Source: an uncultured delta proteobacterium (GTDB taxonomy: Bacteria > Desulfobacterota > DSM-4660 > Desulfatiglandales > HGW-15). Taken from it: a stretch of 64,000 bases of DNA. Below the pieces are notes generated by a model. That model had not been told where the DNA came from. It saw only the letters and a program-made list of their open reading frames with translations, and searched no databases. Of this stretch, positions 46,751 through 63,912 are shown piece after piece. Made by a program: the position numbers and the translations under genes. The stretch is from the NCBI GenBank assembly GCA_963702565.1, contig CAVPDE010000011.1, positions 40,918 to 104,917 on the forward strand, written 5' to 3'. Each line of letters begins with the position of its first letter. Within the stretch, counting starts at the first letter, position 1.

Positions 46751-46766
46751 AGCACCTTTCGTGCCA
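46751..46766 (-). promoter_or_regulatory. Sigma-54 (-24/-12) promoter candidate TGGCACG-AAAG-GTGCT
   Basis: The minus strand reads CTGGCACGAAAGGTGCTC, with GG and GC at the canonical 10-nt spacing, about 70 nt upstream of ATG 46681. Confidence 0.7.
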
Positions 46767-46952: not shown

Positions 46953-48299
46953 TCATGACAGAACCTGTTTTTCGGGAGGCTCGATGTGGAGGCGTTTCAT
47001 TTTGCGCCACAGGGTCGTCGGGTGGATGCCCATCTCCGCAGCCGTTGCGGCTCTGTTCCACTGATTGCGCTTGAGGACCTCTCGAATGTAACTACTTTCC
47101 ATCTCACCCAAGGAGGACGGCCTGGTTTCCGGGGGTCGGTTCATCCTGCTCTCCTCCGAGTTCCTGAAGAAATCCGGGAGGTGTTCAATACCGATCGTTC
47201 CGTTCTTGCAAACGACCGTGGCGTACTCGATGATGTTTTCCAGCTCCCGGACGTTTCCTGGAAAATCATGGGACATGAGGATGGGGAATGCTTCGGGGGA
47301 GAGGCCCTGGATCTCCTTGCCGCTCAGACGGCAGAATTTCCGTATGAAGTGTTCCACCAGGATGGGGATGTCTTCTCTCCTGTCGCGCAGAGGAGGAAGA
47401 ACGAGCTTGACCACGTTGATGCGATAGTAGAGGTCCTGTCTGAACTTTCCTTCTTCCACCAGGCTCTGGAGGTTTTTGTTTGTAGCGGCAACGATCCGGA
47501 CATCCGTTTTCAGAAACTTCGTGCTTCCAAGGGGCTCATAGGTCTTATCCTGAAGCACTCGAAGGAGGCGAACCTGCAGGGCAGGAGAAATGTCTCCGAT
47601 TTCATCGAGAAAGAGGGTCCCTCCATTGGCCACGGCTAGCCGACCGGGCTTGTCTTTGAAGGCCGTGCTGTGGGCGCCTTTTTCGTAGCCAAAGAGCTCC
47701 GATTCCAAAAGGGTGTCAGGCAGAGACCCGCAGTTGATCGTGATTAGAGGCCCTGTCTTCCTCGGGCTCAGCGCGTGAATCGCCTTGGCGAACAGCTCCT
47801 TGCCCGTGCCGCTTTCGCCCTCCAACAGAATCGTGGCGTCGCTTTCTGAAATCTGCTCCAGGATCCCGAAAAGCCTGCGCATTTCTTTGTTCTTGCTGAT
47901 GATGTCCTGGAAAGAGTGACGCTTTGTAAGCTCTTTGCGAAGTTCTTCGACCACGCTCAAGTCTCGAAAGGTTTCCACCCCCCCGATGACGGAATCCTGT
48001 TCATCTCTTAGCAGGGCCGTGGAAATGCTGACAGGGACTCGTTCTCCGTGAAGGTTGACGATGTAAATGGATTGATTCAGAACGGGGTGGCCTGTAGCCA
48101 TGGTGTGTTTCAGAGAGCAGCGATTTTCGCAAATACTGGCTCTGAACACTTCCCAGCATTGACGGCCGATGGCTTCTTCTTTCTTAATCCCTGTAATTTT
48201 TTCTGCAGAGCGGTTGAAAGAAGTGATCTTCAAATTCGAGTCCACCGTAAAAACGCCATCTGCGATGCTGTCGAGGATGATCTGCGTCCGGTTTTCCAC
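46953..48299 (-). CDS. PAS-domain sigma-54-dependent (NtrC/Fis-family) transcriptional activator with an atypical GAFTGA loop
   Basis: It has a PAS domain (SFNRSAEKITG) carrying CWEVFRASICENRCS, an AAA+ domain (GESGTGKE, RIVAATN, R-finger RREDI) and a C-terminal Fis-type HTH (AAAEMGIHPTTLWRKMK). The GAFTGA position reads GAHSTA. Confidence 0.85.
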   Translation of the reverse strand: MENRTQIILDSIADGVFTVDSNLKITSFNRSAEKITGIKKEEAIGRQCWEVFRASICENRCSLKHTMATGHPVLNQSIYIVNLHGERVPVSISTALLRDEQDSVIGGVETFRDLSVVEELRKELTKRHSFQDIISKNKEMRRLFGILEQISESDATILLEGESGTGKELFAKAIHALSPRKTGPLITINCGSLPDTLLESELFGYEKGAHSTAFKDKPGRLAVANGGTLFLDEIGDISPALQVRLLRVLQDKTYEPLGSTKFLKTDVRIVAATNKNLQSLVEEGKFRQDLYYRINVVKLVLPPLRDRREDIPILVEHFIRKFCRLSGKEIQGLSPEAFPILMSHDFPGNVRELENIIEYATVVCKNGTIGIEHLPDFFRNSEESRMNRPPETRPSSLGEMESSYIREVLKRNQWNRAATAAEMGIHPTTLWRKMKRLHIEPPEKQVLS

Positions 48300-48318
48300 A
48301 TCCTATCCTCTTTAGGCC

Positions 48319-49626
48319 CTATTCTCCCTCATCATCTTCTTCGTCAAAGACGATCTCGTCCCTCTCGTATTGGGCATCCCGCAGGGCATGGGCTTTTTCC
48401 ACTTCCTCTTCGCTCCAGGGCTCCACAATGAGCGAATCAGCCACTAGCTCCCACAAGTACTTGGTCTCAATGTCCAAGCCGAATTCTTTGGTCAGGCCTT
48501 TCATGATCTGGTCACGGCAATTGTGGCAGGGGGTAATGACCAACTTTGCTCCTGTGTCCCTGATCTGTTGCGCCTTAACCCTTCCGTAGTAAATTCTTTC
48601 GTCCGAGTAAGGCATGGCCCATGCGCCGCCGCCGGCGCCGCAGCAGTAGTTGTTCATCCGGTTGGGGTACATTTCCACATAATGCTCGCAGCACTGCTGG
48701 GTGATCCACCGGGGCTCTTCAAAGTAGCCATGGCCGAAAGCCTTCTGGCCTTTCCTTCCGTAATTGCACGGGTCATGCACGGTCGTGAGTTCTTCGTGGA
48801 TGGTTTTGTCCAGTTTGATTCTTCCCGTCTCGATGTATTCTTTCAGGAGATCGTGGACCGATACGACCTTGTATTTCTTGAAAACTTCGGGAAACCAGTT
48901 TTGCAGACCAAGCCTGGTCGCGTAGTAAGCGTGCCCTCACTCGGGCAAAAGGAGCGTCTTACACTCCAGCCTCTCCATGTGCTCGACGATACGACCCACG
49001 AGCGTCTTCATGGACTCATCATCTCCTGAGAAGAGCCCCCAATTGACTCCTTCCCAGTTGTACGAAGGTACGGTCCAGTCCTCCTTGGCCGCATAAAAGA
49101 TGCGCCACCAGAACTTCATGTCATCCGGCTCCCCAAAGGGTTCTTTGGAGTTGATTGTGACGAGGACGTTGGCTCCCTTTTTATCCACAGGCACATAGAA
49201 CCCAGGGAAACCATCCGCTTCGAGCTCTTTACCGAGGTCAGCGAGGAGGAAGAGAAAATCCGGTTTGGGAATGCCGAGGTTGTTCCCTCTTTGAAGGTCC
49301 ATGACCACGCCCTTGTGGATGGGGCCCGGGACCTTGTCTCTTTCGCGAAGGGTTCTGGCTCTTCGCATCATCTTGAGGATTTCCACTCCCTGAGGGCACG
49401 CGTATTCGCAACGGCCGCAGAGGGTGCAGATCCAGGGGAACCTCGAATCAATGAGTTCCTGGTCTAATCCCAGCGCAGCCATGCGGACAGCCTTTCTGGG
49501 GTCCATGTTGTCAACGCCTGTGACTGGGCAACCGCTCGCGCAGGTGCCGCAGGTGAAACAGACATCCGCCCACTCAGGGGACACTCTCAGTTTGCTCTCT
49601 TTTCGGTTAATGACCAAAGGTTCCAT
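48319..49626 (-). CDS. HdrD/GlpC-like Fe-S oxidoreductase (2x[4Fe-4S] + CCG domain), selenocysteine-containing (in-frame TGA 48937-48939)
   Basis: Track ORFs 48937-49626 and 48319-48780 are in the same frame and are separated only by a TGA plus 52 open codons. The read-through sequence is ...LLLPE-U-GHAYYATRLG...DPCNYG...NYCCGAGGG...PCHNC (C-x40-CC-x37-C-x2-C). The hairpin GACCA-GGCT-TGGTC lies 18 nt after the TGA. Confidence 0.75.
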
Positions 49627-49723: not shown

Positions 49724-50113
49724 TCAACGGCTCAGGAATTCCTTGATCTTCGCGAGAAGTTTTTCTTTGTCCACGGGTTTGTCAAAAAAAGCGTCAGGGC
49801 TGAAGTACTCCTGGTCTCTCTCTTTTTCATATCGGACCCCCAATTCGTCCGCCATGCCCGAAATCCCGATGATTGGCGTCTTCTTGAGATCCGGGTCTGT
49901 TTTGATCCGCTTGCACACTTCAAAGCCCGAATACAGGGTCTCCATCATCACGTCGAGCAGAATGAGGTCCGGATGCTCTTTTTGAGCCAATTCCACGCCC
50001 TTTTTCCCGTCTTGTGCCGTCAGCGTGCCGAACCCATTTCGTTTCAAGAACGTTTCAGTGGTGAAAAGGTAATCGGGGTTGTCATCGATGATCAATATCT
50101 TCTTGGATCCCAT
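49724..50113 (-). CDS. Stand-alone response-regulator receiver protein
   Basis: KKILIIDDNPD, ILLDVMM and PIIGISGM (CheY-like fold signature). Confidence 0.9.
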   Translation of the reverse strand: MGSKKILIIDDNPDYLFTTETFLKRNGFGTLTAQDGKKGVELAQKEHPDLILLDVMMETLYSGFEVCKRIKTDPDLKKTPIIGISGMADELGVRYEKERDQEYFSPDAFFDKPVDKEKLLAKIKEFLSR

Positions 50114-50152: not shown

Positions 50153-50995
50153 CTAATATTCGGGAGGCATTTGTTTAAGTTGAGCCAGTGAGAAAACAGG
50201 TCCATCCTTGCACACATACTGGTCTCCGATGTTGCAGCGACCGCAAATGCCGATGCCGCACTTCATACGCATTTCCAGAGAGAGAATGATCCTGTCCGGG
50301 GGAAACCCCAGTTTCTCCAGCACCGGTTGAGTGAACTTGATCATGATCGGAGGTCCGCACACAATGGCTATGGCATTGTCTGCGCTCTTGATTTTCTGCT
50401 CCGTAATCGTGGGCACAAATCCGGTGTTGTATTTCCAGCTCGGATCGTTCGTGCTGTCCACGGTGATGTGCATGTGAATATCGTCCCTCCGCTCCCAAGC
50501 GGCGAGTTCCTCCTTGTAAAGGAGCATTCCCGGGCTTCGGGCTCCGTACACCACCGTGATGTCCTTGAATCGCGACCGGTTGTCCGGATGAAGCATGTAG
50601 ACAATGCTGGAGCGAAGGGTGGTGAAAGCGAAACCGCCGCCGACGATGACCACATTCTTTCCCTCCATCTCCTCCCAGGGGTACCAGTTTCCCAGAGGGC
50701 CGCGGATCCCCATCACTTCGCCCTCTTTCATGTTGTGAAGGTAGGTGGTCACCTGGCCGACCTTGTTCACCGTAAAGGTGACAAATCCTTTTTCCGTAGG
50801 GGAAGAGGCGATGCCGATCGGGATCTCTCCTTTCCCTGCTATGGAGAGCTCTGCAAACTGACCCGGAGTATAGGCGAACTTCCTTTCGTCCTCAGGATCA
50901 AGGAAAACGAACCTGAAAGTCTTCAGGTTTTTGTCTTCGGTCTCCGTGACGATCTTGTCGATTCGGACCGGGTAAGGAAGATAGGGATTTTGCAT
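50153..50995 (-). CDS. FAD/NAD(P)-binding oxidoreductase with C-terminal [2Fe-2S] (AsrB / sulfhydrogenase-gamma / FlxA-like)
   Basis: PGQFAELS, GEIPIGIAS, GPLGNWY, VVIVGGGFAF, and C-terminal RMKCGIGICGRCNIG...VCKDGPVF. The start was moved to ATG 50995, since upstream codons translate a repeat. Confidence 0.8.
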   Translation of the reverse strand: MQNPYLPYPVRIDKIVTETEDKNLKTFRFVFLDPEDERKFAYTPGQFAELSIAGKGEIPIGIASSPTEKGFVTFTVNKVGQVTTYLHNMKEGEVMGIRGPLGNWYPWEEMEGKNVVIVGGGFAFTTLRSSIVYMLHPDNRSRFKDITVVYGARSPGMLLYKEELAAWERRDDIHMHITVDSTNDPSWKYNTGFVPTITEQKIKSADNAIAIVCGPPIMIKFTQPVLEKLGFPPDRIILSLEMRMKCGIGICGRCNIGDQYVCKDGPVFSLAQLKQMPPEY

Positions 50996-51018
50996 CAGAC
51001 TCACACTCCTTCTCCAAG

Positions 51019-51104
51019 TTGGAGTAATGGAGTACTGGAGTAGTGGAGTGTTGGGAATCGCAGTTCTGTTCACTCCATTACTCCATTACTCCATCATTCC
51101 ATCC
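51019..51104. repeat. TGGAGTNN / NNACTCCA-type inverted arrays (8-nt period)
   Basis: TTGGAGTA ATGGAGTA CTGGAGTA GTGGAGTG TTGGG, a centre, then CACT CCATTACT CCATTACT CCATCATT CCATCC. Confidence 0.85.
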
Positions 51105-51107
51105 TTA

Positions 51108-52142
51108 TTATCCGTTCATCAATTCAAATACTTTTCGAATATCGATGTTGACGGGGCAGAACTGGACACATCGCCCGCACCCGACGCATGCTGGCCCGTT
51201 CCCGTACTTGTCCACGTAATACTTCAGCTTGTGCATAAACCGCTGCCTGACCCTCTGAAGCTTCTTGTCCCGGGGATTGTGGCCGGACCCATGAAGGGTG
51301 AAGAGCGGGAACATGCAGGCATCCCAATTCCGGATCCTGTCCCCTTCTTTTCCTGACACTTCGTCCTGGATGTCAAAGCACCAGCAGGTGGGACAGAGAA
51401 ATGTGCAGGTTCCGCAGTTGATGCACGCAAAAGAGACTCTCTCCCAGAAAGGGGCGTTGAAAAGCTCATTGACCGCTTTCTCCCGGAGGTGATCCACGTG
51501 CACCCTGGAGGAGTTTTTTTTCTCCGCTGCTTTTGGAAGGCTTAGCGCCTTCTTGAAGAGGGAGTCGGCTGCCTCTGAACCCAGCTCGACCTTTTCCAGG
51601 AAAGCCTCGCCTTTGGGCGTGAGGCTTCTCACCAGGAAGCGGTCGCCCAGGTCGACCATGAGCGCATCCAGACCTTTCTCGCTGAAGGGGCCGCTTCCCA
51701 CAGAGGTGCAGAAGCAGGAGGCGCAAGGGTCGTTGCATCCGAAGCCGACAAGGGTGGTGGTTTCCATGCGGCGGACCCACCACGGGTCCTGGAACTGAGG
51801 ATTGTCGAAATTGATCCTCACCAACTCAAAGGCAAAAGCGTCGCAAGGCCTTATTCCCACGATCACCTGGGGAGAAAAGTCCTTCGGTGCCTCCTTGACG
51901 ACGTGCGCGTCCCCTTTGCTCTCGTCCAGAGTGTACTCGAACATCCGCTCTGACTGCGGAAGCATAACCGATTTCGGGGAAAGCCTGGTGTTCTGGAATT
52001 CAAAATTGGGTTTGCGGCCTGTTTCCAGAAGCCTGAAGTTGTGGAAGTCCCCCTCCTTCACAGGGACATACACTTTGTAAACGCCTTGCAGCCTTTGTAG
52101 TGCCTCAGTCCATTGTTCCTTGCTGAATGATTTTTTAAGCAT
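51108..52142 (-). CDS. 4Fe-4S dicluster protein (AsrA / sulfhydrogenase-beta / FlxB-like)
   Basis: CINCGTCTFLCPTCWCFD and CVGCGRCVQFCP. 344 aa, paired with the AsrB-like subunit. Confidence 0.75.
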   Translation of the reverse strand: MLKKSFSKEQWTEALQRLQGVYKVYVPVKEGDFHNFRLLETGRKPNFEFQNTRLSPKSVMLPQSERMFEYTLDESKGDAHVVKEAPKDFSPQVIVGIRPCDAFAFELVRINFDNPQFQDPWWVRRMETTTLVGFGCNDPCASCFCTSVGSGPFSEKGLDALMVDLGDRFLVRSLTPKGEAFLEKVELGSEAADSLFKKALSLPKAAEKKNSSRVHVDHLREKAVNELFNAPFWERVSFACINCGTCTFLCPTCWCFDIQDEVSGKEGDRIRNWDACMFPLFTLHGSGHNPRDKKLQRVRQRFMHKLKYYVDKYGNGPACVGCGRCVQFCPVNIDIRKVFELMNG

Positions 52143-52154
52143 AGCATGAATCCT

Positions 52155-52264
52155 TAGGAGTATTGAATGCTGGAGTAATGGAGTACTGGAGCGCTGGAGT
52201 AATGGTGGAATAAAGAAAAAGAGGATACCCAGTACTCCAAGACTCCATCACACCATCACTCCAT
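52155..52264. repeat. TGGAGTNN / NNACTCCA-type inverted arrays (third copy)
   Basis: TAGGAGTA TTGAATG CTGGAGTA ATGGAGTA CTGGAGCG CTGGAGTA ATGGTGGA, a centre, then CCCAGTACT CCAAGACT CCATCACA CCATCACT CCAT. Confidence 0.85.
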
Positions 52265-53215
52265 TTATTTGACAAACTCGTTATAGTCGTCCACTCGATA
52301 AACATCCAGAGGCGGCCGCTGATCCATGCGGGTCCCTGCCTCCCAGCCGAAGAGCTCAAAAGCATCCTTGTTCAGCTTCTTGGTGAACTGCCTCATGGAG
52401 ATCCCCACGGGGCAAACCCTCTCACAAGCACCGCAGTCCGTGCACCTCCCGGCACAATGATAAGCCCGCAAAAAATGAAAGGTCATGGTATCCACGGGAT
52501 CCGTGCTTTTCCCTACCCACTGGGGCCGCGACTCATCGACGAAGCAAGTGGGGCAGTAGCAGAGCGGGCAAACGTTTCGGCATGCGTAGCACCGTAGGCA
52601 GGATGAAATAAGCTGGGTGAAAAACTTCCGCTTTTCTTCGGGGCTCTTCTTTTCCAACACCTCAATGTCTTTGAAGGGGTTGACGCCCTCCTGTTCAGGA
52701 ACCGGGTCAGCGACCATCTCGTCGTATTCGACGGGATTTCGATGAAGGCAAGTGGCGCAATTGGTCCTCAAGAAATCCTTTTTCTTAAAGGTCTCCTGAA
52801 AACCGTTTCCGCTCACCGTGAAGGAGTCATTGGTTTCAGTGACATCGAGAATCTCCTTGTTCCCCATCGTTCTCTTCACCGCTCGGTGGTCGATCATGCC
52901 GGTGCAGGGAAGGCCCACGATGTAGAGCTGTTCCCGCTTAATCTGGTTTTCGATGATGTGGGTCACGATGTTCCTGGAATTGCATCCATTGGCGACAATC
53001 CCGACGCGGTCGGTCCGCTTGGTCAGGTAATTGCAGAGGTTCAGACCGCAGTGGCTGTCCCAGTGAAGCAAGTCGACCTCCGCAGGATTCTTGACCAGCA
53101 CTGGTTCATTCATCATGGGCACTGAGCCCTTCCGGTAGCCGATGAAAACGTCGACCGTTCCCTTTTCCAGGAGCTTTCGAGCGATGTCTCTGATTTTCTG
53201 GGTATACTCAAGCAT
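52265..53215 (-). CDS. Fe-S cluster-binding oxidoreductase subunit (FlxC-like)
   Basis: CLRCYACRNVCPLCYCPTC and CTDCGACERVCP. The ATG at 53213-53215 overlaps the mvhD stop (TGATG). Confidence 0.65.
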   Translation of the reverse strand: MLEYTQKIRDIARKLLEKGTVDVFIGYRKGSVPMMNEPVLVKNPAEVDLLHWDSHCGLNLCNYLTKRTDRVGIVANGCNSRNIVTHIIENQIKREQLYIVGLPCTGMIDHRAVKRTMGNKEILDVTETNDSFTVSGNGFQETFKKKDFLRTNCATCLHRNPVEYDEMVADPVPEQEGVNPFKDIEVLEKKSPEEKRKFFTQLISSCLRCYACRNVCPLCYCPTCFVDESRPQWVGKSTDPVDTMTFHFLRAYHCAGRCTDCGACERVCPVGISMRQFTKKLNKDAFELFGWEAGTRMDQRPPLDVYRVDDYNEFVK

Positions 53216-53658
53216 CAAACCACCTCAGCTCTTCTCTTAACAAGATAAGTTGCCTGACCGGTCTCCTTGACCGCCTTGATGACTTCGGTGGCAACCTCCA
53301 CGAACTTGGTTGCTTCGGCAGAGGAAATCCACGAAAAGTGCAGTCTTCCCGGTTCCAGCCCCACATGCTCGATCAGATTCTTGAACAGTGCGAACTTGCG
53401 TCTTGCGAAGTAATTACCTTCCAGGTAATGGCAGTCGCCGGGGTGTCAGCCGGAAACCCAAACACCGTCGGCGCCGTGTCGGAACGCGGCGAGGATGAAT
53501 TTGGGGCTCACCCGGGCAGAGCAGGGCACCCGGATAACCCGGATATTGGACGGGTACTGGAAGCGGCTGACCCCTGCCAGGTCTGCCGCTCCGTAGCTGC
53601 ACCAGTTGCACAAGAATGCGGTTATCTTAGGCTGCCAGTCGTTCATAGCTCTCTCCAA
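53215..53658 (-). CDS. mvhD: MvhD/FlxD-like [2Fe-2S] electron-transfer subunit, selenocysteine-containing (in-frame TGA 53446-53448)
   Basis: Track ORF 53446-53658 ends ...[12 protein letters not shown]. The same frame stays open for 76 more codons: [51 protein letters not shown]...; G-U-HPGDCHY is the Cys/Sec position of MvhD. The hairpin ATTACC-TGGAA-GGTAAT lies about 20 nt after the TGA. Confidence 0.8.
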
Positions 53659-53813: not shown

Positions 53814-56800
53814 TTACATTTCGTTAATCATCGCCATGATCTGCCCTTCCTCGAATCCCTTGAGGTTGAGCGCTCCTGAGCGGCAGGAAGCCACGCAAAG
53901 ACCGCAGCCTTTGCAGAGCACCGGGTTGACCTCCGCCTTACCCGCGAAAGGCCCCTTCTGAATAAAAGAGGGCGCCGAGTAGGGGCAAATCTCCACACAG
54001 ACCCCGCAGCTGCTGCAGACGGCAGGGGTCGTGTAGGCGACCATGCCGCTCACAGAGATAGTCTTTCTGGCCAGCAGAGTGACCGCTCTGGAGGCGGCTG
54101 CCTGGGCGTGGGCCACCGACTCATCGATGGGCTTTGGATAGTGCGCCATACCGCAAAGGAAGACCCCGTCCGTGGCAAACTGGGATGGGCCCAGCTTGGC
54201 GTGAGCCTCCACAAAGAACCCGTCCTCGCTCACGGGGACCTTGAAGAACTGGGCAAGCTTTTCGTCCTTGTAGGGAACGATGGCCGAGGCCAGGGCAACC
54301 AAACCCGCCTTGATCAGGATGGGCCGCTGGAGCACATGATCCATCACCTCGATCTCAAGTCCCTCTGTACCGGCGGAGACTTTCGGTTTCTGAGAAACAG
54401 AGAACCGGATGAAGAGAATCCCCGCTTCTCGCGCCTTCCTGTAAAGGAGTTCCCGCTCGCCGTAGGTTCGGATGTCCCGGTTGAGAATGTAAACATCCAT
54501 GGCTGGGTTCAGCTCTTTGAGGTGGAGGGCGCTTTCAATGGAGTGGGTGCAGCAGACTCTCGAACAATAGGGTCTTTGCGGTTCGCGCGAGCCCACGCAC
54601 TGGATGAACACGGCGGTTTGAACCTTCTTGAGCGATGGGTCGTGATCGATGAATCTGCGGTCCAACTCCTGGTGAGTCACCACCAGGGGATTTTTCCCAT
54701 AAAGGTACTCCTCGGGCTTGTACTCACAGCATCCCGTGGCCAGCACGGCGATTCCGTGGTCAATGGTTCCCTGGAGGGTACTGGACTGAAACGTGGACTT
54801 GAAGTTTCCGACGAACCCTTCGACCTGGGTCAGCTCGGCTCCGAGGTGGACGCGGATGTTTTTGTCACCCTGGACCGACTGCACAAGGTCCCCCAGGTTT
54901 TTCTGGATATCTTCTCCCTGCCACGTCCTGTAAAGGTTTAGGGCCTGACCGCCGAGCACGCGGGATTTTTCGATGATGTCCACCTCATAGCCCTGGTCGC
55001 TCAAGGTCTTTGCCGCCACCATCCCGGAGATGCCGCCACCGACCACGAGCGCCCGCTGGTTGATATCCAGGACAGCCTCAGGGAGGGATTCCATGAGAGC
55101 CACCTTGGCCACGGCCATGCGCACGAGGTCTTTGGCTTTGTTCGTGGCCTCCTGAGGATTGTCTTTGTGGACCCAGGAGTCCTGGTTGCGGATGTTGGTC
55201 ATCTCGAAGAGGTACTTGTTCAGCCCGGCGTTGACAAGGGTTTCCTGAAAGAGAGGCTCGTGGGTCTTGGGCGTGCAGGCCGCCACCACGATCCGGTTGA
55301 GGGCGTTCGCCCTGATCACCTGGGCCATGGTGTCCTGAGTGTCCTGCGAGCAGGAGTAGAGGTTGTCCGCTACGTACTCGACGTAGGGAAGCTTCTTCGC
55401 ATAGTCGCGCACAGCCGGTACATCCACCACGCCGCCGATGTTGATGCCGCAATTGCAGACAAAGACGCCGATGCGAGGCCGCTCCCCCCGAATGTCTATC
55501 TGCTCGGGCACCTCTTTCGCTTTGGTCAGCGTATTGCGCGCGCTACTCAAAAGGCCTCCTGCTTGGGCAGCCGCCGAACTCGCTTCGATCACGGACTGGG
55601 GAATGTCCTTGGGTCCCTGGAAAGCCCCGCACACGTAAATGCCTTCCCTGGAGGTAGCCACTGGAGCAAAAGAACCGGTGCGGCAGAATTGCGATTCGGT
55701 GAGGTCGATGTCGAGCTTGTCGGCCAATTCCACGACCTCCGGCGAGGTCTCCATCCCTACGGAAAGGACGACCATGTCAAAAGCCTCTTGGCGCAATTCA
55801 CCGTTTTCAGTGGCATACTTGACGCTGAGATCTTCGGACTGCGAGACGGCCTCCACGGAGTGAACGCGGGACCGGATGAAGCGAACGCCGTGTTTTTCCC
55901 GGGCCGCGTCATAGTACCTTTCGAACTCCTTTCCGTGGGTCCTCATGTCCATGTAGAAGATGGCGCAATCGAGATCAGATCCTGAATGCTCCTTGGCGAT
56001 GACCGCCTCTTTGATGGCATACATGCAACAGACGGAAGAACAATAGGGATGGTCACACTGATGCATGTCCCTGGACCCGACGCACTGGAGCCACGCGATT
56101 TTCTTGGGCTCCTTGTGATCGGACATGCGGGCGAGATGCCCCAGGGTAGGACCGGACGCTGAAAGGATCCTCTCGAACTCCATGGAGGTGACCACGTTCG
56201 GAAGCTTGGAGTAGCTGTAAGTATCGTACTTGGAGGGGTCAAAGGGCTGAAAGCCCGGTGCAAGGATGATGGCCCCTACTTGTACCGTCGTCCTTTTTTC
56301 CTGGTCATCAAATTTGATAGCTCCTGAGGAACAGAATTTCTCGCAAGCTTTGCACTTACCTTTTTCGAAGAAAATGCAGTTATCTTTGTCGATGGCATAT
56401 TTCAGAGGCACGGCCTGGGCGTAAGGGACATAAATGGCTTTCCGCTTGATCAAGCCTTCATTGTAATCGTCTTCAACCTTTTTGGGACATTTCTCAGCGC
56501 AGGTACCGCAACCAATACACTTCTCAGGGTCCACGTATCGCGGATGCTGCAGAATGTCCACTTGTAGATTTCCGGGCTCTCCCCTGACATTTAGAACTTC
56601 TGAAAGCGTAAGCAATTCGATGTTTAGGTGCCGGCCGACCTCGACCAGTTTGGGGGAGATAATTCACATCGCACAATCATTAGTGGGAAACGTCTTATCC
56701 AGTTGGGCCATGACCCCGCCTACAGACGGGGACTTCTCAACGAGGTAGACGTGGTAGCCGGAATCTGCCAGGTCAAGCGAGGCTTGCATCCCTGCAATAC

Positions 56801-56846
56801 CACCGCCGACGACCATTACTGATCCTGTGGGTTTATGGGACATCAT
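53814..56846 (-). CDS. hdrA: Large HdrA-like flavoprotein (HdrL-type, two FAD/NAD dinucleotide-binding regions), selenocysteine-containing (in-frame TGA 56664-56666)
   Basis: Track ORFs 56664-56846 and 53814-56615 are in the same frame. The read-through sequence is VVGGGIAGMQASL...KTFPTNDCAM-U-IISPKLVEVGRHLNIELLTLSEV, the known Cys/Sec site of HdrA. There is a second GGGISGMVAA motif mid-protein, several CxxCxxCxxxCP ferredoxin motifs, and about 1010 aa in total. Confidence 0.85.
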
Positions 56847-57120: not shown

Positions 57121-58188
57121 CTAAGATTGCGGAAGAGGTAATATGATTCTGAACGTGCTTCCCTTGCCGGGGCTGCTGAGGACCTCGATTCTGCCGTCGT
57201 GCTCCTTCACGATTTCATGAACCACCATGAGCCCGAGGCCGGTGCCGTCGGTTCCCTTTGTGGAGAAGAAGTGGGTGAAGATTTTCTCACAGGTGGTGTC
57301 GTCCATCCCAATCCCGTCATCGACCACCTCCAACATGAGATGGCGACGGTCATAGAAATCGGCTTTCAAAGTGACGGCGTGAGAGTCTTTTCCTTTGTCC
57401 CTGCGGCACGCTTCCAGCGCATTGGAAAGTAGGTTGATCAACATCCGGCGCATGGCCCCGGGATCCATATGAACCACAGGAAGGCGTGGGTTGGAGTTTG
57501 CTCTCAGTTTGCACTCGATGGACTGAGCTTTTTCGTAAAAAAACGCAATGGACTCCATGAGCATTTTATCAAGGACAACTGCTTCATAGACCGGCTTTCT
57601 TTTCTTGGTGGAATAAAGGATATTCTGGACCAGGCCGGAAATCTCCTGGATGTTTTTCTTGACCACAGACCATCCTTTCTTCATCAGTTCCTGATCTTGG
57701 TCCTTCAGCGCTTCATCCACCACATAGGCGCCCCCCTGGAGACCCTCCAAAATGTTCTTGATATCATGGGAAAGGATCGCCACAGACTGGCCGAGGAGAG
57801 TGAGTCCCTTCTGGGCCTCTTTCACTTTGCTGATGTTGGACGACAGCTCCAGAACAGCGACTACATTGCCCAGGGCATCCGTAATGGGGGAAGAGTAAAT
57901 CACCACGTGGACGGGTTCCCTTCCGCCCAGATGCACGACCTCTTCGCTTACGTGGGCCTTCTTGTCCTGAAAGGTTTCCCAGACCGGGCAGGAAGAGCAA
58001 CGGACGGAACTCCTTAAATAGACTTCATGGCACTTCTTGCCGATTGCCTCGCCGAAGTCATTCCGAAAGGTCTGGTTGGTTTGCAGGATGGTGAAAGATC
58101 GGTCTTGAATGGAGACATAGCATGGGAGCAGATCGACAATCGCCTTGTACCCAAGGTCAAGGAGTGTGGGATGGCTATTCTCGCCCAT
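57121..58188 (-). CDS. Cytoplasmic sensor histidine kinase with a Cys-rich PAS domain
   Basis: PAS domain with PCY...C-x10-C-x2-CP, HisKA (LSHDIKN) and HATPase_c (DDGIGM, FFSTK, GTGLGL). Confidence 0.9.
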   Translation of the reverse strand: MGENSHPTLLDLGYKAIVDLLPCYVSIQDRSFTILQTNQTFRNDFGEAIGKKCHEVYLRSSVRCSSCPVWETFQDKKAHVSEEVVHLGGREPVHVVIYSSPITDALGNVVAVLELSSNISKVKEAQKGLTLLGQSVAILSHDIKNILEGLQGGAYVVDEALKDQDQELMKKGWSVVKKNIQEISGLVQNILYSTKKRKPVYEAVVLDKMLMESIAFFYEKAQSIECKLRANSNPRLPVVHMDPGAMRRMLINLLSNALEACRRDKGKDSHAVTLKADFYDRRHLMLEVVDDGIGMDDTTCEKIFTHFFSTKGTDGTGLGLMVVHEIVKEHDGRIEVLSSPGKGSTFRIILPLPQS

Positions 58189-58235
58189 TGTCCAGCAGTC
58201 TCCAGAAGGTGTAAACGAGGAAAACTTGTCCTGCG

Positions 58236-58628
58236 CTATTTCAAGGCGTTCCGTATTGCTTCCAGGATCTCATCAGGCTCAGGCGGTTTCTCGATGTAGG
58301 CCGCGGGCTCGGGGATTTTCTCCCCCTTGTATTCATCCAGCACTTTCTGGGAGTGGAAAAAGGTTTTCTTGGAGAGCGCCGAGAGCATGATCACAGGAAT
58401 CCCCTTCAGTTCAGGGTCGTTCCTTAACTCGCGATAGAGGTTGATCCCGCTCTCTTTGGGCATCATGATGTCCAGGATAATGAGAGCCGGCCTGCTCTTG
58501 CGGGCCACTTCCAGCCCCTGGAAACCGTCTTGAGCCGTGAGAGGCTTAAAGCCGTTGGTTTCCAGCAGGGTGGTGATGAAGGTTCTCATGTCCAATTCAT
58601 CATCAACGACAAGGACTTTCTTCGCCAT
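58236..58628 (-). CDS. Stand-alone response-regulator receiver protein
   Basis: KKVLVVDDELD, IILDIMMP and PVIMLSA. Confidence 0.9.
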   Translation of the reverse strand: MAKKVLVVDDELDMRTFITTLLETNGFKPLTAQDGFQGLEVARKSRPALIILDIMMPKESGINLYRELRNDPELKGIPVIMLSALSKKTFFHSQKVLDEYKGEKIPEPAAYIEKPPEPDEILEAIRNALK

Positions 58629-58693
58629 CTTTAGACTCCTTCCAAAATGGGGTCAGATTATCTCTCTGCTCATTCGAACACCGAGGATGCCCC

Positions 58694-59197
58694 CTAGTAC
58701 ATGCTTCCAGGCAGAGTGAACTGTTTTGCCGGATTGCGGATCGCGATGACATGGCAATGGGCGTATTTGGAGACATTGCCCACCGTGCTTCCGTGAACCA
58801 TGCGATCCTGTTCAGCTTTGCCGAGGGCCCCCATGACGATCACATCAATGCCGTTTTTCTTCGCATAACGGATGATTTCCACATCGGGCGACCCGCTCTT
58901 GACAACGAACAAGTAGTTCTTGAAATCTCCGAGCTTCTTCTCGTACTCTTTCTTGAGCGCCTCTCTGGCCCGCTTCTCCACGTCTTCGTCATAGAAGGCC
59001 TCGCCGCCGGGAGCCCCTGAAGGAACATGTTCGTCAACCACATTCCTCAGATAGGAATAGGAGGAGTGGGGAACATGAAAGATGTGGAGCTTGGCGCCAT
59101 GCTTCTTCGCAAGGTCGAAGGCGTGCAGGAAAGCGATGTTGGCGTCCTCTGAAAAATCCGTGCAAAAAAGGATGTTTTTGTACTCTATCATAGTCAA
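58694..59197 (-). CDS. Universal stress protein (UspA family)
   Basis: ILFCTDFSE, and VIVMGALGK...GSTVGNV (an ATP-binding G-2x-G-9x-G(S/T) type motif). Confidence 0.85.
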   Translation of the reverse strand: MTMIEYKNILFCTDFSEDANIAFLHAFDLAKKHGAKLHIFHVPHSSYSYLRNVVDEHVPSGAPGGEAFYDEDVEKRAREALKKEYEKKLGDFKNYLFVVKSGSPDVEIIRYAKKNGIDVIVMGALGKAEQDRMVHGSTVGNVSKYAHCHVIAIRNPAKQFTLPGSMY

Positions 59198-59220
59198 CCC
59201 CTCTCAGAAGTAATGATGTG

Positions 59221-60366
59221 TCATGCGGAGGGCTTCTTATCGGGAAGCCTCACCCTGAAGACCGTCCCCTTCCCTTTTTCGGACGAGACGTCAATGACCC
59301 CTCCGTGCTCATCAACGATTTTCTTGGCGATCATCAAGCCAAGGCCCGTGCCCCTCGAACCCTTTGTGCTGAAAAAAGTCTGAAAAATTTTCTTTCTCGT
59401 CTCTTCATCCATGCCGCAGCCATTGTCCGTCACCTGGTATTCCACGGCCCACCCCTCGGGCTTTAACGTCCGGAGGGACACCTCGCATGTTTTTGAAGCG
59501 CAGGAAATGTCCGTGCATGCATCAATCGCGTTGGTCACCAGATTGAGGAGAACCCGGTGAATCCCTTCGCGGTCAAACCACGCGTGTGCTAAACCCTGAT
59601 CCGGTGCGATCTTTAACGCAACACCCGTCTCTGAGGCACGGGAAAGCATTAGATCATAAACCTCCTTGGCAGGTCCATTCGGATCGCAGAGTTGCACCTC
59701 AGGCTCCCTCTCCTTGGCGTAGTTCAGGAGATCCACCGCCATGCCTTTGATCTTTTGAACGTTCCCCTTGATCATTTGCCAGCCCTGGCTGAGATAGGTC
59801 CTGTTCTCCAGATCAATGCCTTTTTCAAGGACGTACATCCCACCCGTCAGACCGGCGGTGATATTCTTGATGGCGTGGGCCAACCCTGCCACGGTCTGGC
59901 CCACAGCCGCAAACCTTTCCGCTTCCACAAGCTTCCGGCTCTTTTCTTCAACCAGCGTCTCCAGGTTTTCCGTGTACTCCCTGAGCCTCTTTTTGTATGA
60001 AAGCTTCTCCAGTGCCCTTCGAAGGGCAATGTCGAGCGTTTCATCGTGGATGGGCTTTGTGATGAAATCAGACGCATCGTACTTGAGACTCTGTATGGCA
60101 AGCTCCATTTCGCCGTGTCCTGTGATCATGATGACTTCGGTGTTGGGGCTTTCTGCCTTAATGCGCTTGAGCAGTTCGATCCCATCCATCCCGGGCATCT
60201 TAATGTCGGTGAGAATGACCTCGGGACCCGCTTCATGGAAAACCCGAAGCGCCTCTTCACCGTTTTCAGCGGTCAGCACCCGGTAGCCCCGGTCGGCCAG
60301 AGAGATGCCCAGGACTTTGAGAATGCCCGGTTCATCATCCACAAGGAGCAATTGCTTTTCCATCAA
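59221..60366 (-). CDS. Hybrid response regulator-histidine kinase (REC + HisKA + HATPase_c)
   Basis: LLLVDDEPG and ILTDIKMPGMDG, then GLAHAIKN, then DNGCGM, FFSTK and GTGLGL. Confidence 0.9.
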   Translation of the reverse strand: MMEKQLLLVDDEPGILKVLGISLADRGYRVLTAENGEEALRVFHEAGPEVILTDIKMPGMDGIELLKRIKAESPNTEVIMITGHGEMELAIQSLKYDASDFITKPIHDETLDIALRRALEKLSYKKRLREYTENLETLVEEKSRKLVEAERFAAVGQTVAGLAHAIKNITAGLTGGMYVLEKGIDLENRTYLSQGWQMIKGNVQKIKGMAVDLLNYAKEREPEVQLCDPNGPAKEVYDLMLSRASETGVALKIAPDQGLAHAWFDREGIHRVLLNLVTNAIDACTDISCASKTCEVSLRTLKPEGWAVEYQVTDNGCGMDEETRKKIFQTFFSTKGSRGTGLGLMIAKKIVDEHGGVIDVSSEKGKGTVFRVRLPDKKPSA

Positions 60367-61850
60367 GCCTCGTGAATCCGGGGAAACCTGATGATAAAGG
60401 TCGCCCCTTCCCCTTCCTTGCTTTCCACCTTGATCGTGCCGTCATAATCCTGCACAATGCCGTAACTGATGGAGAGACCGAGCCCTGTCCCCTTGCCCAC
60501 CTTCTTGGTCGTGAAGAAAGGTTCGAATATCCTGTCGAGAAGGGGTTCAGGGATTCCGATGCCGGTATCGGTCACTTCAATGGCGACCATCTCATCTTCA
60601 ACCTTTGTTTTCAAGATGATCCGTTTCACTTCTTCCTTCGGGGCTCTTTGCTCCCCTTTCTTCTCGATGGCGTCTCTGGCATTGATCAGGAGGTTGACGA
60701 AAACCTGCTCCAGCCGGTTGGGATCAGCCAGAACCGCGGGAACATTCTCATCAAGGTCCTCCACGACCTCGATTTCCCGCAACTTCAGTTGCTGCTTGAA
60801 AAAGTCAACCGCCCGTCTCAGGACGTTGTTGACCTGGACCTTCTCCTTTGCCACGTCTGATTTCCGGCCGAACTCCCTCATGTGGCCGATGATTTTGGAT
60901 GCCCTGTCCACGTGGGTGTCAATCTCTTCGGCCATGGTCCTGAGAATGTCTGTCCTCATCGGCTCCCCGTTGTCGGCCTTTCTTCGCAAGAAGCTGCTTG
61001 CCGTCTTAATGACCGAGAGGGGCTGATTCAACTCGTGGGCAACGCCCGTGGCCATCTCTCCCAGGGTGGCCATTTTGCTCGCCTGGATCAAGTGCTGCTC
61101 GGCCATCAAACGCACCGTGATGTCGCTGGCGGTCACAAGAAGAACCTTCCAGCCGTTGAATTCAGAGGAAGAAATGTGAATGCTGACATAGATGACCTTC
61201 CCGTCCTTGCGTACCTGTCTTGCCCGGTCGATGATGTTGGTGGTTTTGAGACTGACCTCATAGCTCTTCCGATCGTTGCCCTCGAATAGATCAAGGAAGG
61301 AGGTCATATAAATCTCCTCTTTGGAGAACCCATACACGGCTGCAACGCTTTCATTGCAGTCGAGGACCTTGAGGTTCTGCGCGTTCAAAACAAAGACCGG
61401 GTTCGGGATCGTGTTGAAAATGATCCGGTATTTCTCTTCTGATTTTCTTGCCTCCCTTTCGAGGGACTTCATCTGCGTCAGATCGAGGCTCATTTCCATT
61501 GCCGCGATCACCTCCCCTTTATCGTTCTTGAGGGGGGAGGTCTTCACCAGCCAGTAGGTCTCGGTGCCCTCCTTGGTCACGGCCTGTTCTTCGCTCACAT
61601 GGGGTCGTCCGTCTTCAAAGGTCTTGAGGACAGGGCAGTTAGGGCATTTTTCGGAACGGCCTTTGTAAGCCTTGAAGCAGAAATCCCCCGGTTCTGGTGA
61701 GAACATCTTTTCGAACTCCCGGTTGTATCTCAGGAGCTTCAGATCCCGATCCTGGACCGTGATGTAGCAGGGAGACTCCTCAAAGAGGGTCTGGTATTCG
61801 TTCTGGTGGCGATTGGATGATTCTTGTTTAGCCTTGATCAAAGGGTCCAT
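60363..61850 (-). CDS. Sensor histidine kinase with two PAS domains, the first Cys-rich
   Basis: PAS1 with PCY...C-x11-C-x2-CP (paralogous to 57121-58188), then PAS2, HisKA (GVAHELNQP) and HATPase_c (DTGIGI, FFTTK, GTGLGL). Confidence 0.9.
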
Positions 61851-61916
61851 CGAATTGATCGCATCCTTTTTTTTCGATTCCGCCCTCGCCTGGGGTAACG
61901 CTCTCCGGTCGCCCTC

Positions 61917-63200
61917 TTACTCCTCTTCTTCGTCCTCCTTGGGGAGCATATGTTCCGGGATCACCATGTGTTCGGAAATCACTTCCTTGAAGTGGACGGC
62001 CTTGATGTCGAGCTTGTGCTCCTTGGCCAGGTCCCGGATCTGGTCGATGCAGTTGTGGCAGGGGACGAGAACCAACTTGGCGCCTGTTTCGCGGATCTGG
62101 TCGGCTTTGACTTTCCCCGAGGCCAGGCGATACTTCTTCATTTCGCCGCCCATGGGCATGGCACCGCCGCCGCCGCCGCAGCAATAGTTGTAGTTGCCCT
62201 GGTATTTCATAGGGCGAAAATCCTCGGAGACCAGTTCAGCCAAATGCCGGTTCTTTTCTGCAAGCCCTCCGCTCCGGATGACATTGCAGGGGTCCTGAAC
62301 CGTTGTGGGCACTTTGATCTTCTCTTTGAGCTTGATCCGGCCGTCCCGGAGGTAGTCGTGAAAGAGCTCCACGGAGTGAATCACTTCCTGTTTCGGCTCG
62401 TATCCCAACCAAATGGGCGCTTCGTACCGAAGCGCTCGATAGGCGTGGCCTCACTCGGTTACGGCGACTTGTTTCACCTCCAGTTCCTCGGCTCGCTTGA
62501 AGGTGTTCTCCACGATCATGCGGGCGGTAGGCGCATCATTGATGAACATGGCCAGGTTCGTGTCGTCCCATCCCTTCTCGCTCGGGACCGTCCAGTCCTC
62601 ACCGGCCACCGCGAAAATCTTGGCCACCTCCATGATGTCCTGGGGATAGAACTTGGGCTCCCTGGCGTTGACCGTGTACATGATCTTGGCCCCCTTCTTG
62701 TCGATGGGGATCTTGAGACCTACCACTTCAGCCGCAGCTTCCTCCTCGCACCACTGGATGGTTTCGACCCAGTCCTCCTTGGACACGGCCATCTGGTTGC
62801 CGGTCAGCTTGTAGTTTTCAACGGCTTTCTTGAGACCTTCGGGAGCGATTCCCAGAGAGGTCAGCAGGCCCCTCAGGGTGGAGATGAGGAAGCCGATATC
62901 AATGCCAAAGGGGCAGTAAAGCGTGCAGCGCCTGCACATGTTGCACTCGTAGTAAATGGTCTTGTAAATCTCTTGGAGATACGCCTTGTCCACCCGGCCT
63001 TTTTTCTTGAGCAGGTCTCTCAAAAATCTCACTTTGTAGGCGGGGATCATTTTGGGATCTTTCCCGCTCGCCAGATAGAAGTGGCAGGTGTCGGCGCACA
63101 TGCTGCAGTGGGTGCAGGTTTCGATCCACGTCTTCAAACGGGCACCCAATCGGGGTTTGAGGAAATCCATGATCGCTTTCGGGTTCACGTCTTCAGTCAT
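61917..63200 (-). CDS. DsrK/HdrD-like Fe-S oxidoreductase (2x[4Fe-4S] + CCG domain), selenocysteine-containing (in-frame TGA 62451-62453)
   Basis: Track ORFs 62451-63200 and 61917-62408 are in the same frame. The read-through sequence is ...QVAVTE-U-GHAYRALRYE...DPCNV...NYCCGGGGG...PCHNC. The hairpin GCGCTTCG-GTA-CGAAGCGC starts 15 nt after the TGA. AAAGGAG lies upstream of ATG 63200. Confidence 0.8.
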
Positions 63201-63246
63201 AGAACAACTCCTTTAACCAGGAAAATCTCTTTCAAAACCCACCAGG

Positions 63247-63912
63247 CTATATTGAGTATCCTCTTCTTCCGAATTCGATGCCGCTGGCTGCCCGGGAGAA
63301 GAAGAAAAGCACGGAGTGGGAGAGTCTTGTAAAAGGGATCAGGATGAGCATGAGCTCTGCGGAGAGAACATGAAAGAGCCTCATGTTGTCACCGAGAAAC
63401 TTGATGCTGTCCACGGTCCCGTGAGTGAGGAAATAGCCGGTCAGGAAAGGGAGGACCGTCACCACGATGAGGAGGTAATCGCCAGCCGTGGTAAGGAGGC
63501 GGAGATCGGGCAAGAGTGCCCTTCTCAGGATGAAAAAAATGGCGATCGCAAGAAGGAGCAGCGTCATCCAGTCCGCCCATTTATCGGGGATAGAGGACCA
63601 GGACCACCCGAAACGCGATTCTTCCCAAAGGGAGACATGGCCTGCCAGCCAAATGGGCACCACAATGAGGCAGATGTGAAAAAGGTAGACACAGATAATG
63701 AAAACAGGGTTTTTTTTCACTGTCACATTGAGAGGCAGCAGCCACCGGGCCAAGGTGGCGAGAATGTATTTCACGCTGAAATAATTGTAGAGGGGCTTAT
63801 CCTTTGTCCGGGCGACAAAGATGAATTGGGCCATGCGGATCAGTGTTCCCATGATGAAGACAAGAAAGGCGATCCACAATAGGGGTCCTTCTGCGAACGA
63901 GCTCAAGTCCAT
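63247..63912 (-). CDS. NarI-family membrane cytochrome b-like subunit (DsrM/HdrE/HmeC-like)
   Basis: 221 aa with five or six TM helices and conserved His in TM2/TM5 positions (FHICLIV, FHVLSAE). It lies immediately upstream of the DsrK-like gene. Confidence 0.65.
   Translation of the reverse strand: MDLSSFAEGPLLWIAFLVFIMGTLIRMAQFIFVARTKDKPLYNYFSVKYILATLARWLLPLNVTVKKNPVFIICVYLFHICLIVVPIWLAGHVSLWEESRFGWSWSSIPDKWADWMTLLLLAIAIFFILRRALLPDLRLLTTAGDYLLIVVTVLPFLTGYFLTHGTVDSIKFLGDNMRLFHVLSAELMLILIPFTRLSHSVLFFFSRAASGIEFGRRGYSI

Follow-up and report, generated by a model that had tools for sequence, protein, structure and literature searches.

One of the 25 bacterial selenoprotein families is the 'Fe-S oxidoreductase (GlpC)', which has been described as a selenoprotein in hdrA operons (PMC1794560; Zhang et al. 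2006), the family having also been reported by Kryukov & Gladyshev 2004. A 2026 review gives 'UGH' as the motif of the Fe-S oxidoreductase-like selenoprotein, listed there as 'predicted with high confidence' and uncharacterised in function (PMC13188914), and HdrD4 of Desulfobacterium autotrophicum is another reported HdrD that contains selenocysteine (Sec) (PMC2702500). DsrK, HmcF, and TmcB have one CCG motif together with one strictly conserved Cys of the missing motif, within GECGH or T/GECGH, and in these proteins the conserved Cys of T/GECGH has been proposed to be essential for disulfide/trisulfide reduction and may bind the cluster (PMC10861901). In the structure of EtfD, Cys581 and Cys584 ligate the distal cluster, in the first CCG domain, and His583 completes the coordination of the noncubane [4Fe-4S] cluster in the second (PMC13083937), while BamD, an HdrBC-fusion subunit, docks on the HdrA-like BamE as a high-potential output (bioRxiv 10.64898/2026.04.10.717634). 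The gene considered here, paralog 1, encodes an HdrD-like Fe-S protein with Sec at an in-frame TGA, and is found within a 64,000 bp stretch of DNA, the window, from an uncultured delta proteobacterium (contig CAVPDE010000011.1, positions 40,918 to 104,917).

Translation of paralog 1 gives a frame of 435 codons on the minus strand, 49626..48319, of which the sole interruption is the TGA at 48937-48939. This TGA terminates an upstream open reading frame (ORF) of 229 aa (48937..49626), and in the same frame, separated from it by 52 open codons, is a downstream ORF of 153 aa with a GTG start (48319..48780). A Shine-Dalgarno sequence rated as good, AAAGGAGA, lies ahead of the ATG, and the stop codon just upstream of this ATG means that there is no hidden N-terminal extension. 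The ORFs, frame, counts, coordinates, and Cys motifs of the initial annotation of this DNA hold, on translation and Pfam, although the minus strand went unstated there. The Sec is residue 230, in the context LLLPE-U-GHAYYATR. The features of the gene are as follows.

48319..49626, minus strand: paralog 1 coding sequence, an HdrC+HdrB fusion and HdrD-like Fe-S selenoprotein (435 codons and a TAG stop)
49384..49569, minus strand: ferredoxin-type domain, 2x[4Fe-4S], HdrC-like, residues 20-81 (Pfam Fer4_8; PDB HdrC chains, E 1e-12 to 1e-14)
48937..48939, minus strand: TGA selenocysteine codon, residue 230 (LLLPE-U-GHAY; aligns with EtfD Cys581)
48903..48921, minus strand: hairpin of the selenocysteine insertion sequence (SECIS), GCGACCA-GGCU-UGGUC(U)GC (local fold -8.4 kcal/mol; covariation)
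48505..48783, minus strand: one complete CCG domain, with a noncubane [4Fe-4S] binding motif (Pfam CCG; alignment to the HdrB C-terminal CCG and to the EtfD D2 ligands)
48322..48429, minus strand: conserved C-terminal helix and acidic tail, EPWSEEEVEKAH...DEEDDEGE (homologs lacking a helix-turn-helix (HTH) domain, helix prediction, ortholog matches)

On the comparative evidence, the UGA at 48937-48939 is recoded as selenocysteine, and paralog 1 is one selenoprotein of 435 residues. When one genome per species was scanned for orthologs, 80 loci had the whole protein, at 63-96% identity, and the motif could be located in 78 of these. The loci come from the Desulfatiglandales (including strain NaphS2), Desulfobacterales, Desulfarculales, Desulfobaccales, and related metagenome-assembled genomes. 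In all 78 there is a TGA at the Sec codon (...LLLPE[*]GHAY...), and none of 75 distinct ortholog sequences has a second stop within the 52 codons that follow, which bears out the earlier view that a coincidental stop is very unlikely. Variation at codon positions 1/2/3 after the TGA is 0.05/0.09/0.28 for codons 1-17 and 0.21/0.13/0.50 for codons 18-52, being concentrated at the third position in the pattern of translated sequence.

Full-length homologs of up to 67% identity exist as single ORFs, and the alignment of Sec with Cys homologs called for in the initial annotation places Cys at the Sec column in most of them; among the more distant full-length homologs this is true of 92 out of 120. 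Conservation of the column is complete for the TGA of the orthologs but not among the relatives fused to an HTH domain, approximately 22% of which have another residue here: Ser (15), Leu, Gly, Ile, Val, Tyr, Ala, or Thr. These relatives (P0017, P0019, P0024, etc.; L090:6001-7449, L091:6001-7467) keep the full CCG motif. The codons checked in them are TCG and CTG, and so these are real substitutions and not a mistranslated TGA.

A hairpin following the TGA had been noticed initially, and covariation identifies it as a SECIS. Its core, GACCA-GGCT-TGGTC, begins at the 18th nt after the TGA and extends to 7 pairs and one bulge. The apical loop, GGCU, opens with GG 23 nt after the UGA, and a GG-starting apical loop at this distance fits the usual geometry of a bacterial SECIS. 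Covariation was assessed in 69 distinct orthologous sequences with an 8-pair model and 500 shuffles, the 3' partners being slid by 1-3 columns as a control. Paired cells make up 92% across the 69 sequences, versus 26-38% in the slid controls, and the covariation score was reached by none of the 500 shuffles. There are double compensatory changes at three pairs (C-G to U-A in 20 sequences, G-C to A-U or U-A in 7, and C-G to G-C in 8), with few or no unpaired cells at these same pairs. The hairpin sequence is absent from the relatives that encode Cys. The fold z-scores for 60-90 nt after the paralog 1 TGA are not significant (+0.28, -0.77); the hairpin is thermodynamically unremarkable by itself, and the case for it therefore rests on covariation. 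Rfam returned no SECIS family, either at the gathering threshold across the whole window or at E<=10 within 48800-49000, which is uninformative.

Shortly after the Sec, substitutions of Gly to Ser (RLGLQ to RLSLQ), Ala to Gly, and Leu to Phe go together with changes in the pairing strand of the SECIS stem, at columns 30/37 and 26-27/40-42 of alignment A2. For some of these compensatory changes the amino acid is altered on one arm while the change on the other is synonymous, and the RNA structure thus constrains the protein sequence.

For the protein itself, family membership was judged by the NCBIfam/TIGRFAM equivalog cut-offs, domains by Pfam, and structure by a Foldseek search with an AlphaFold2 model. 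Pfam finds Fer4_8 at residues 20-81 (2.2e-11) and a single CCG domain at residues 282-374 (2.4e-10). There are two N-terminal CxxCxxCxxxCP motifs (C23-C33 and C67-C77), and the CCG motif is D-P-C287-x40-C328C329-G-x37-C367-x2-C370. The AlphaFold2 model has a mean pLDDT (predicted local distance difference test score) of 87.7, and its top Foldseek match is the soluble part of mycobacterial EtfD, with a template modelling (TM) score of 0.69, followed by LutA, HdrB chains (TM target 0.60-0.66, approximately 300 columns), and HdrC chains. A match to HdrB over approximately 300 columns covers both HdrB half-domains, and paralog 1 thus has the architecture of HdrD, a fusion of HdrC and HdrB. The initial description as a Sec-containing HdrD-type Fe-S protein is supported by the conservation of the TGA, by Pfam, and by these structural matches. 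The C-terminal helix and acidic tail are common to the HTH-less homologs P0078, P0115, P0117, and P0118; residues 406-422 are a helix in the predicted structure, and the orthologous loci align with paralog 1 up to residues 428-433.

The best curated NCBIfam models for paralog 1 all score below their cut-offs (HmcF 211.6 against 750, TmcB 188.3 against 735, and DsrK 163 against 400), and the true GlpC models match the ferredoxin part only (PRK11168 41.9 against 278; TIGR03379 35.2 against 279.9). On these scores 'GlpC' is a historical label, and a misnomer, rather than the function of paralog 1. As the initial annotation had it, the family is indeed listed in the selenoproteome surveys, with the motif 'UGH' (PMC1794560, PMC13188914), although the name does not fit, at 35-42 bits against approximately 279. 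Paralog 1 shares with the Fe-S oxidoreductase (GlpC/HdrD-like) selenoproteins a UGA at a Cys column, U-G-H, a SECIS, and a dicluster ferredoxin with a CCG domain. Its closest full-length relatives (up to 67% identity) are in operons of the hycI-glpC-hdrA-mvhD-mvhG-mvhA type, described for Syntrophobacter and Desulfotalea, and paralog 1 therefore belongs to the selenoprotein family already catalogued.

Most of the full-length Cys-type relatives (P0001-P0120; 480-490 aa) carry an N-terminal HTH_17/MerR-like DNA-binding domain. Such HTH-fused relatives are found in hycI-[HTH-HdrD-like]-hdrA-mvhD-mvhG-mvhA operons (loci L085-L087, L090, L091). To our knowledge, no explanation has been given for a DNA-binding domain fused to an HdrD-like enzyme subunit.

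The initial annotation had asked whether the Sec falls at a degenerate first CCG-like site, and by alignment this is where it belongs (PMC10861901; PMC13083937). In a phmmer alignment to EtfD (PDB 9OJN, chain 9ojn_A), U230 is matched with Cys581, G231 with Pro582, H232 with His583, and A233 with Cys584, and the spacing to the first Cys of the complete CCG motif (C287 in paralog 1) is 57 residues in paralog 1 and 56 in EtfD. Of the distal-cluster ligands of EtfD, C503, C538, C581, and C584, only the C581 position is filled in paralog 1, by the Sec, the C584 position being Ala; what is kept in the degenerate first half-domain is U230, plus a non-conserved C222. By this alignment and the roles of the ligands, U-G-H is what is left of the first CCG motif at its CxxC end, and would lie where this half-domain borders the one noncubane cluster that survives. 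With alignment A1 as the profile, a search of the PDB left the Sec region outside the EtfD/HdrB alignment, whereas phmmer with the single sequence covered it. An alternative placement, with the Sec as the 'CC' of the first CCG motif (xUG resembling CCG), was considered and rejected, since by the EtfD alignment and the spacing it corresponds to the first of the two Cys in the CxxC end.

The motif is P-E-U-G-H in paralog 1 and T-E-U-G-H in a second Sec-containing paralog in the window, and by alignment the Sec of paralog 1 occupies the position of the proposed catalytic Cys of (T/G)ECGH. To regard the role of the Sec as unknown, as was done initially, is therefore too pessimistic, the equivalent Cys having been proposed as catalytic in DsrK, HmcF, and TmcB (PMC10861901). 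By analogy with ferredoxin:thioredoxin reductase, the Sec may plausibly act as a nucleophilic selenolate adjoining the one noncubane cluster.

Along the minus strand of the window, the genes follow one another as hdrA-like (with Sec), flxC-like, flxB-like, flxA-like, receiver, paralog 1, and a PAS/sigma-54 activator. These neighbours are listed below, in order of transcription.

53814..56846, minus strand: HdrA-like flavoprotein, a selenoprotein (TGA 56664-56666, TNDCAM-U-IISPK; Pfam Pyr_redox_2 and Fer4)
52265-53218, minus strand: flxC-like gene, Fer4 (Pfam; the Flx-type gene trio spans 50153..53218)
51108-52142, minus strand: flxB-like gene, Fer4_22 (Pfam)
50153-51073, minus strand: flxA-like gene, FAD/NAD-binding and Fe-S (Pfam)
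49724..50113, minus strand: stand-alone response-regulator receiver gene, between the flxA-like gene and paralog 1 (Pfam Response_reg 2.6e-19)
46953..48299, minus strand: PAS / sigma-54-interaction / HTH_8 activator, beginning with GTG and separated by 19 nt from the stop of paralog 1 (Pfam)

Three contexts recur among the ortholog loci. In approximately 19 the order is hdrA(Sec)-flxC-flxB-flxA-paralog 1, as in the window; the receiver gene is in the same place in L005 and in the JGI contigs L001-L003 and is absent from most other loci of this type. In 6 loci the order is a frhB-like gene, hdrA with a fused receiver, hdrC, hdrB, and the paralog 1 ortholog. In approximately 27 the ortholog is a stand-alone gene, oriented divergently to those for an acyl-CoA dehydrogenase and a carboxyltransferase, which are possibly glutaryl-CoA dehydrogenase and glutaconyl-CoA decarboxylase, and these neighbours hint at a role linked to electron transfer flavoprotein (ETF). 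Such stand-alone loci (L008, L012, L013, L015, L019, L022-L037, L040-L042, etc.) are found in genomes of the Desulfatiglandales and of Desulfobacteraceae type. At L014:1000-4431 (and also in L016, L020, and L021) there is an HdrA-like protein of 1143 aa with the receiver domain fused in, followed by hdrC, hdrB, and the Sec ortholog, and the place of the stand-alone receiver gene in the window is similar to that of this fused receiver.

The 19-nt gap between paralog 1 and the activator was correctly reported in the initial annotation, but not the start of the activator, as the in-frame start is the GTG at 48299; the ATG at 48301 overlaps this codon in another frame, where it begins a short ORF only. 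Co-expression of enzyme and regulator, also suggested there, may hold in this genome, where the activator is probably co-transcribed with paralog 1, but as a functional link it is not conserved. Of the ortholog loci with downstream sequence, approximately 5 have such an activator after the gene (with homologs in L007, L016, L017, and L020), and the recurrent upstream partners are hdrA-flxCBA or hdrABC. The conserved link of paralog 1 is with HdrA-type flavoproteins and not with the neighbouring regulator. A near-consensus -24/-12 element, TGGCACGAAAGGTGCT, is present on the minus strand at 46751-46766, between the activator gene and a NifX-like gene (start 46720), which suggests that the target of the activator is the set of NifX/Mrp/NifU-like Fe-S cluster genes downstream of it, and not the selenoprotein gene. 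The scan for sigma-54 promoters gave 28 matches in all, against 30 expected by chance, none of them upstream of paralog 1 or hdrA.

Two other genes in the window have an in-frame TGA. The HdrA-like protein carries a CxxU motif (TNDCAM-U-IISPKLVEVGRH), HdrA CxxU being listed in PMC13188914, and a hairpin, CUGGUCG-AGGU-CGGCCGG, lies 18 nt after its UGA; the mechanical ORF list starts this gene too late, at TTG 56615. The second of these genes is paralog 2.

61917..63200, minus strand: paralog 2, an HmcF/TmcB-like Sec protein (TGA 62451-62453, VTE-U-GHAY; NCBIfam HmcF 454 bits, below the cut-off of 750)

The E-U-GHAY context that the initial annotation had reported for paralog 2 is present. Its hairpin, GCGCUUCG-GUA-CGAAGCGC, is at the same distance as that of paralog 1 and is stronger (fold z = -3.4), both TGA and hairpin are kept in L088 and L089, and TECGH is present in 107 Cys homologs. 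Paralog 2 adjoins a hydrophobic protein of 221 aa (63247-63912); the neighbours of paralog 1 are the receiver and the sigma-54 activator. The region L088:7001-15323 is syntenic with 57121-63912 of the window, and in it P0115, a Cys-type, HTH-less relative of paralog 1, is directly upstream of a cluster like that of paralog 2, comprising a membrane protein, a split Sec HmcF-like gene, a PAS kinase, a hybrid regulator-kinase, Usp, a receiver, and a kinase. Linkage of the two types of paralog is thus seen in a further genome.

The interpretation preferred here, with moderate confidence, is that paralog 1 is a disulfide-reducing equivalent of HdrBC, the high-potential output subunit of an NAD(P)H-linked Flx-HdrA complex, working with the Sec and one noncubane cluster. 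The precedents for such an output subunit are HdrBC on HdrA, BamD on BamE, and FlxABCD-HdrABC. Paralog 1 would dock, in place of HdrBC, on the HdrA-like selenoprotein encoded upstream, within a Flx-HdrA complex that would be fed by NAD(P)H and would bifurcate electrons on flavin. Electrons would pass from the HdrA flavin to the two cubane clusters and then to the noncubane cluster, beside which the selenolate may attack a disulfide or trisulfide, for example that of DsrC or another protein or low-molecular-weight disulfide. Two one-electron steps would then resolve the transient Se-S bond, on the pattern of ferredoxin:thioredoxin reductase and of the proposal for DsrK. That the Sec is invariant in 78 orthologs argues for a chemically demanding role in this clade.

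Several points weigh against this interpretation. In 6 loci there is a complete hdrC-hdrB pair ahead of the gene, which is there an addition to HdrBC and not a replacement of it, and in the approximately 27 stand-alone loci no hdrA is nearby. The approximately 22% of closest Cys-type relatives with Ser, Leu, or another residue at the Sec column show that the residue is dispensable for the function of those proteins. The homologous site of BamD and EtfD passes electrons to or from ETF and binds no disulfide. The position of the Sec relative to the cluster is deduced from a sequence alignment, and disulfide/trisulfide reduction by paralog 1, along with the substrate, is putative for this subfamily. 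A more extended proposal, of a cytoplasmic, NAD(P)H-fed, electron-bifurcating Flx-HdrA complex without HdrB and HdrC whose high-potential branch ends in a single-polypeptide HdrD-like selenoprotein, reducing a disulfide or trisulfide with one noncubane [4Fe-4S] cluster and the selenolate beside it in the manner of ferredoxin:thioredoxin reductase, with the SECIS constraining the protein and the recurrent fusion to, or adjacency of, receiver, sigma-54, and HTH modules reflecting a redox signal, is put forward tentatively, and as a whole is rather doubtful.

The alternative that survives best, although unlikely, is that paralog 1 is an electron relay without disulfide chemistry, like BamD or EtfD/EMO, in which the noncubane cluster exchanges electrons with a soluble carrier such as ETF, the His completes its coordination, and the Sec tunes or shields the cluster. 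In its favour, H232 pairs in the alignment with His583 of EtfD, to which the 'non-catalytic' nature of cluster D2 is due (PMC13083937), and in BamD the noncubane cluster is ligated by a His, the heterodisulfide site is occluded, and ETF is bound (bioRxiv 10.64898/2026.04.10.717634). The acyl-CoA dehydrogenase that adjoins approximately 27 Sec orthologs is a typical ETF donor, and Ser and Leu variants among the relatives would also be accommodated. Sec is costly, however, and is nevertheless kept in 78/78 orthologs, and Sec/Cys pairs usually mark redox-active nucleophiles. With the other distal-cluster ligands all gone, the Sec cannot hold a cluster by itself, and for DsrK, which reduces the DsrC trisulfide, a catalytic role of this motif has been proposed (PMC10861901). 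Nor were etf genes seen next to paralog 1 in the window.

It is improbable that paralog 1 is instead a redox sensor, whose Fe-S/Sec module would sense thiol/disulfide or redox state and signal to the receiver, the sigma-54 activator, or, in the relatives, the fused HTH. The gene does have a receiver gene on one side and, across a gap of 19 nt, a PAS-sigma-54 activator on the other, most Cys relatives have the N-terminal HTH_17/MerR-type domain, a receiver domain is fused to the upstream HdrA in loci of the L014 type, and P0115 is beside a cluster rich in two-component genes. Neither paralog 1 nor its 78 Sec orthologs has a DNA-binding domain, however, and the HTH-fused relatives are embedded in hdrA-mvhDGA enzyme operons. 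The activator is downstream in approximately 5 loci only and the receiver is found in the closest relatives only, while the one good sigma-54-type promoter match is upstream of the NifX-like gene and not of paralog 1.

That there is no recoding, the TGA being a true stop between two proteins (229 aa, ferredoxin-like, and 153 aa, CCG) or within a pseudogene, can be dismissed as hardly credible, since the splitting of the gene into two ORFs by gene callers in public metagenome contigs, the failure to find tRNA-Sec and sel genes in the 64-kb window, and the lack of an Rfam match at the hairpin are set against a TGA invariant in 78 loci across several orders, 52 codons before the next possible start that are conserved at the protein level, third-position-biased, and stop-free in 75 sequences, Cys homologs in single ORFs, compensatory changes in the hairpin, and the further in-frame TGAs of hdrA and paralog 2, which fall at established Sec positions and are both followed by an equally spaced hairpin.

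The selenoprotein family, its UGH motif, the association with hdrA operons, and the catalytic proposal for the equivalent Cys are already published. What is new, and well supported, is a member of this family with approximately 80 unannotated orthologs in an operon of Flx type rather than Mvh type; also new are the covariation evidence for the SECIS and the explicit mapping of residues onto EtfD. Paralog 1 and its approximately 80 orthologs, split in public data, should be merged in annotation. The natural exchange of Sec and Cys at (T/G/P)ECGH offers independent comparative support for the lone residue as the catalytic nucleophile of the one-cluster DsrK/HmcF/TmcB/HdrD-like reductases. If it is the nucleophile, the chemistry would fall to what remains of the second CCG motif instead of to a second cluster, a point that bears on the terminal step of sulfate respiration. 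Being soluble, free of the membrane, and encoded alongside its HdrA/Flx partners, this family member could be easier to express and study than DsrMKJOP.

Compared with the 'Fe-S oxidoreductase (GlpC)' selenoproteins of the Deltaproteobacteria, paralog 1 is alike in domain make-up, in the U-G-H motif, and in its association with an hdrA operon. It differs in that the partner module is of the NAD(P)H-linked Flx type and not an Mvh hydrogenase, in that the gene comes after the hdrA-flx genes and not ahead of hdrA, and in having no N-terminal HTH and a conserved C-terminal helix and acidic tail. With DsrK, HmcF, and TmcB, of the membrane complexes of sulfate reducers, it shares two cubane sites, a single CCG motif, and a conserved residue at the degenerate site, but has Sec for Cys, Pro for the Thr/Gly before the Glu, and no adjacent cytochrome b (DsrM/HmcE/TmcC).

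The HdrBC/HdrD of methanogens (PDB 5ODC and others) shares with paralog 1 the fold of HdrC and of both HdrB halves and the complete C-terminal CCG, and docking on HdrA is predicted for paralog 1. Methanogen HdrB/HdrD has two complete CxnCCGxmCxxC motifs, and its two noncubane clusters split CoM-S-S-CoB homolytically, whereas the first motif is represented in paralog 1 by a lone Sec. BamD (of class II benzoyl-CoA reductase) and EtfD are like paralog 1 in the HdrBC-fusion architecture, and the His adjacent to their noncubane cluster (His583 in EtfD) has a putative counterpart in H232 by alignment. Both retain a distal [3Fe-4S] cluster held by four Cys, of whose ligand positions one is left in paralog 1; ETF is their partner in electron exchange, and Sec is absent from this site in them; EtfD, unlike paralog 1, also has a membrane domain. 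Identification of paralog 1 as a BamD ortholog was rejected, as the upstream regions examined carry hdrA/flx, hdrABC, or acyl-CoA dehydrogenase and carboxyltransferase, none of which fits bamBC.

FlxABCD-HdrABC of Desulfovibrio reportedly constitutes an NADH dehydrogenase / heterodisulfide reductase, as described by Ramos et al. in 2015. The window cluster, in which a separate flxD/mvhD gene was not identified, is like it in having FlxA/B/C-like genes by hdrA and a putative cytoplasmic disulfide-reductase module. It differs from the Desulfovibrio system in gene order, in the receiver gene that is inserted, and in the fused HdrD-like selenoprotein that is present in place of hdrB and hdrC.

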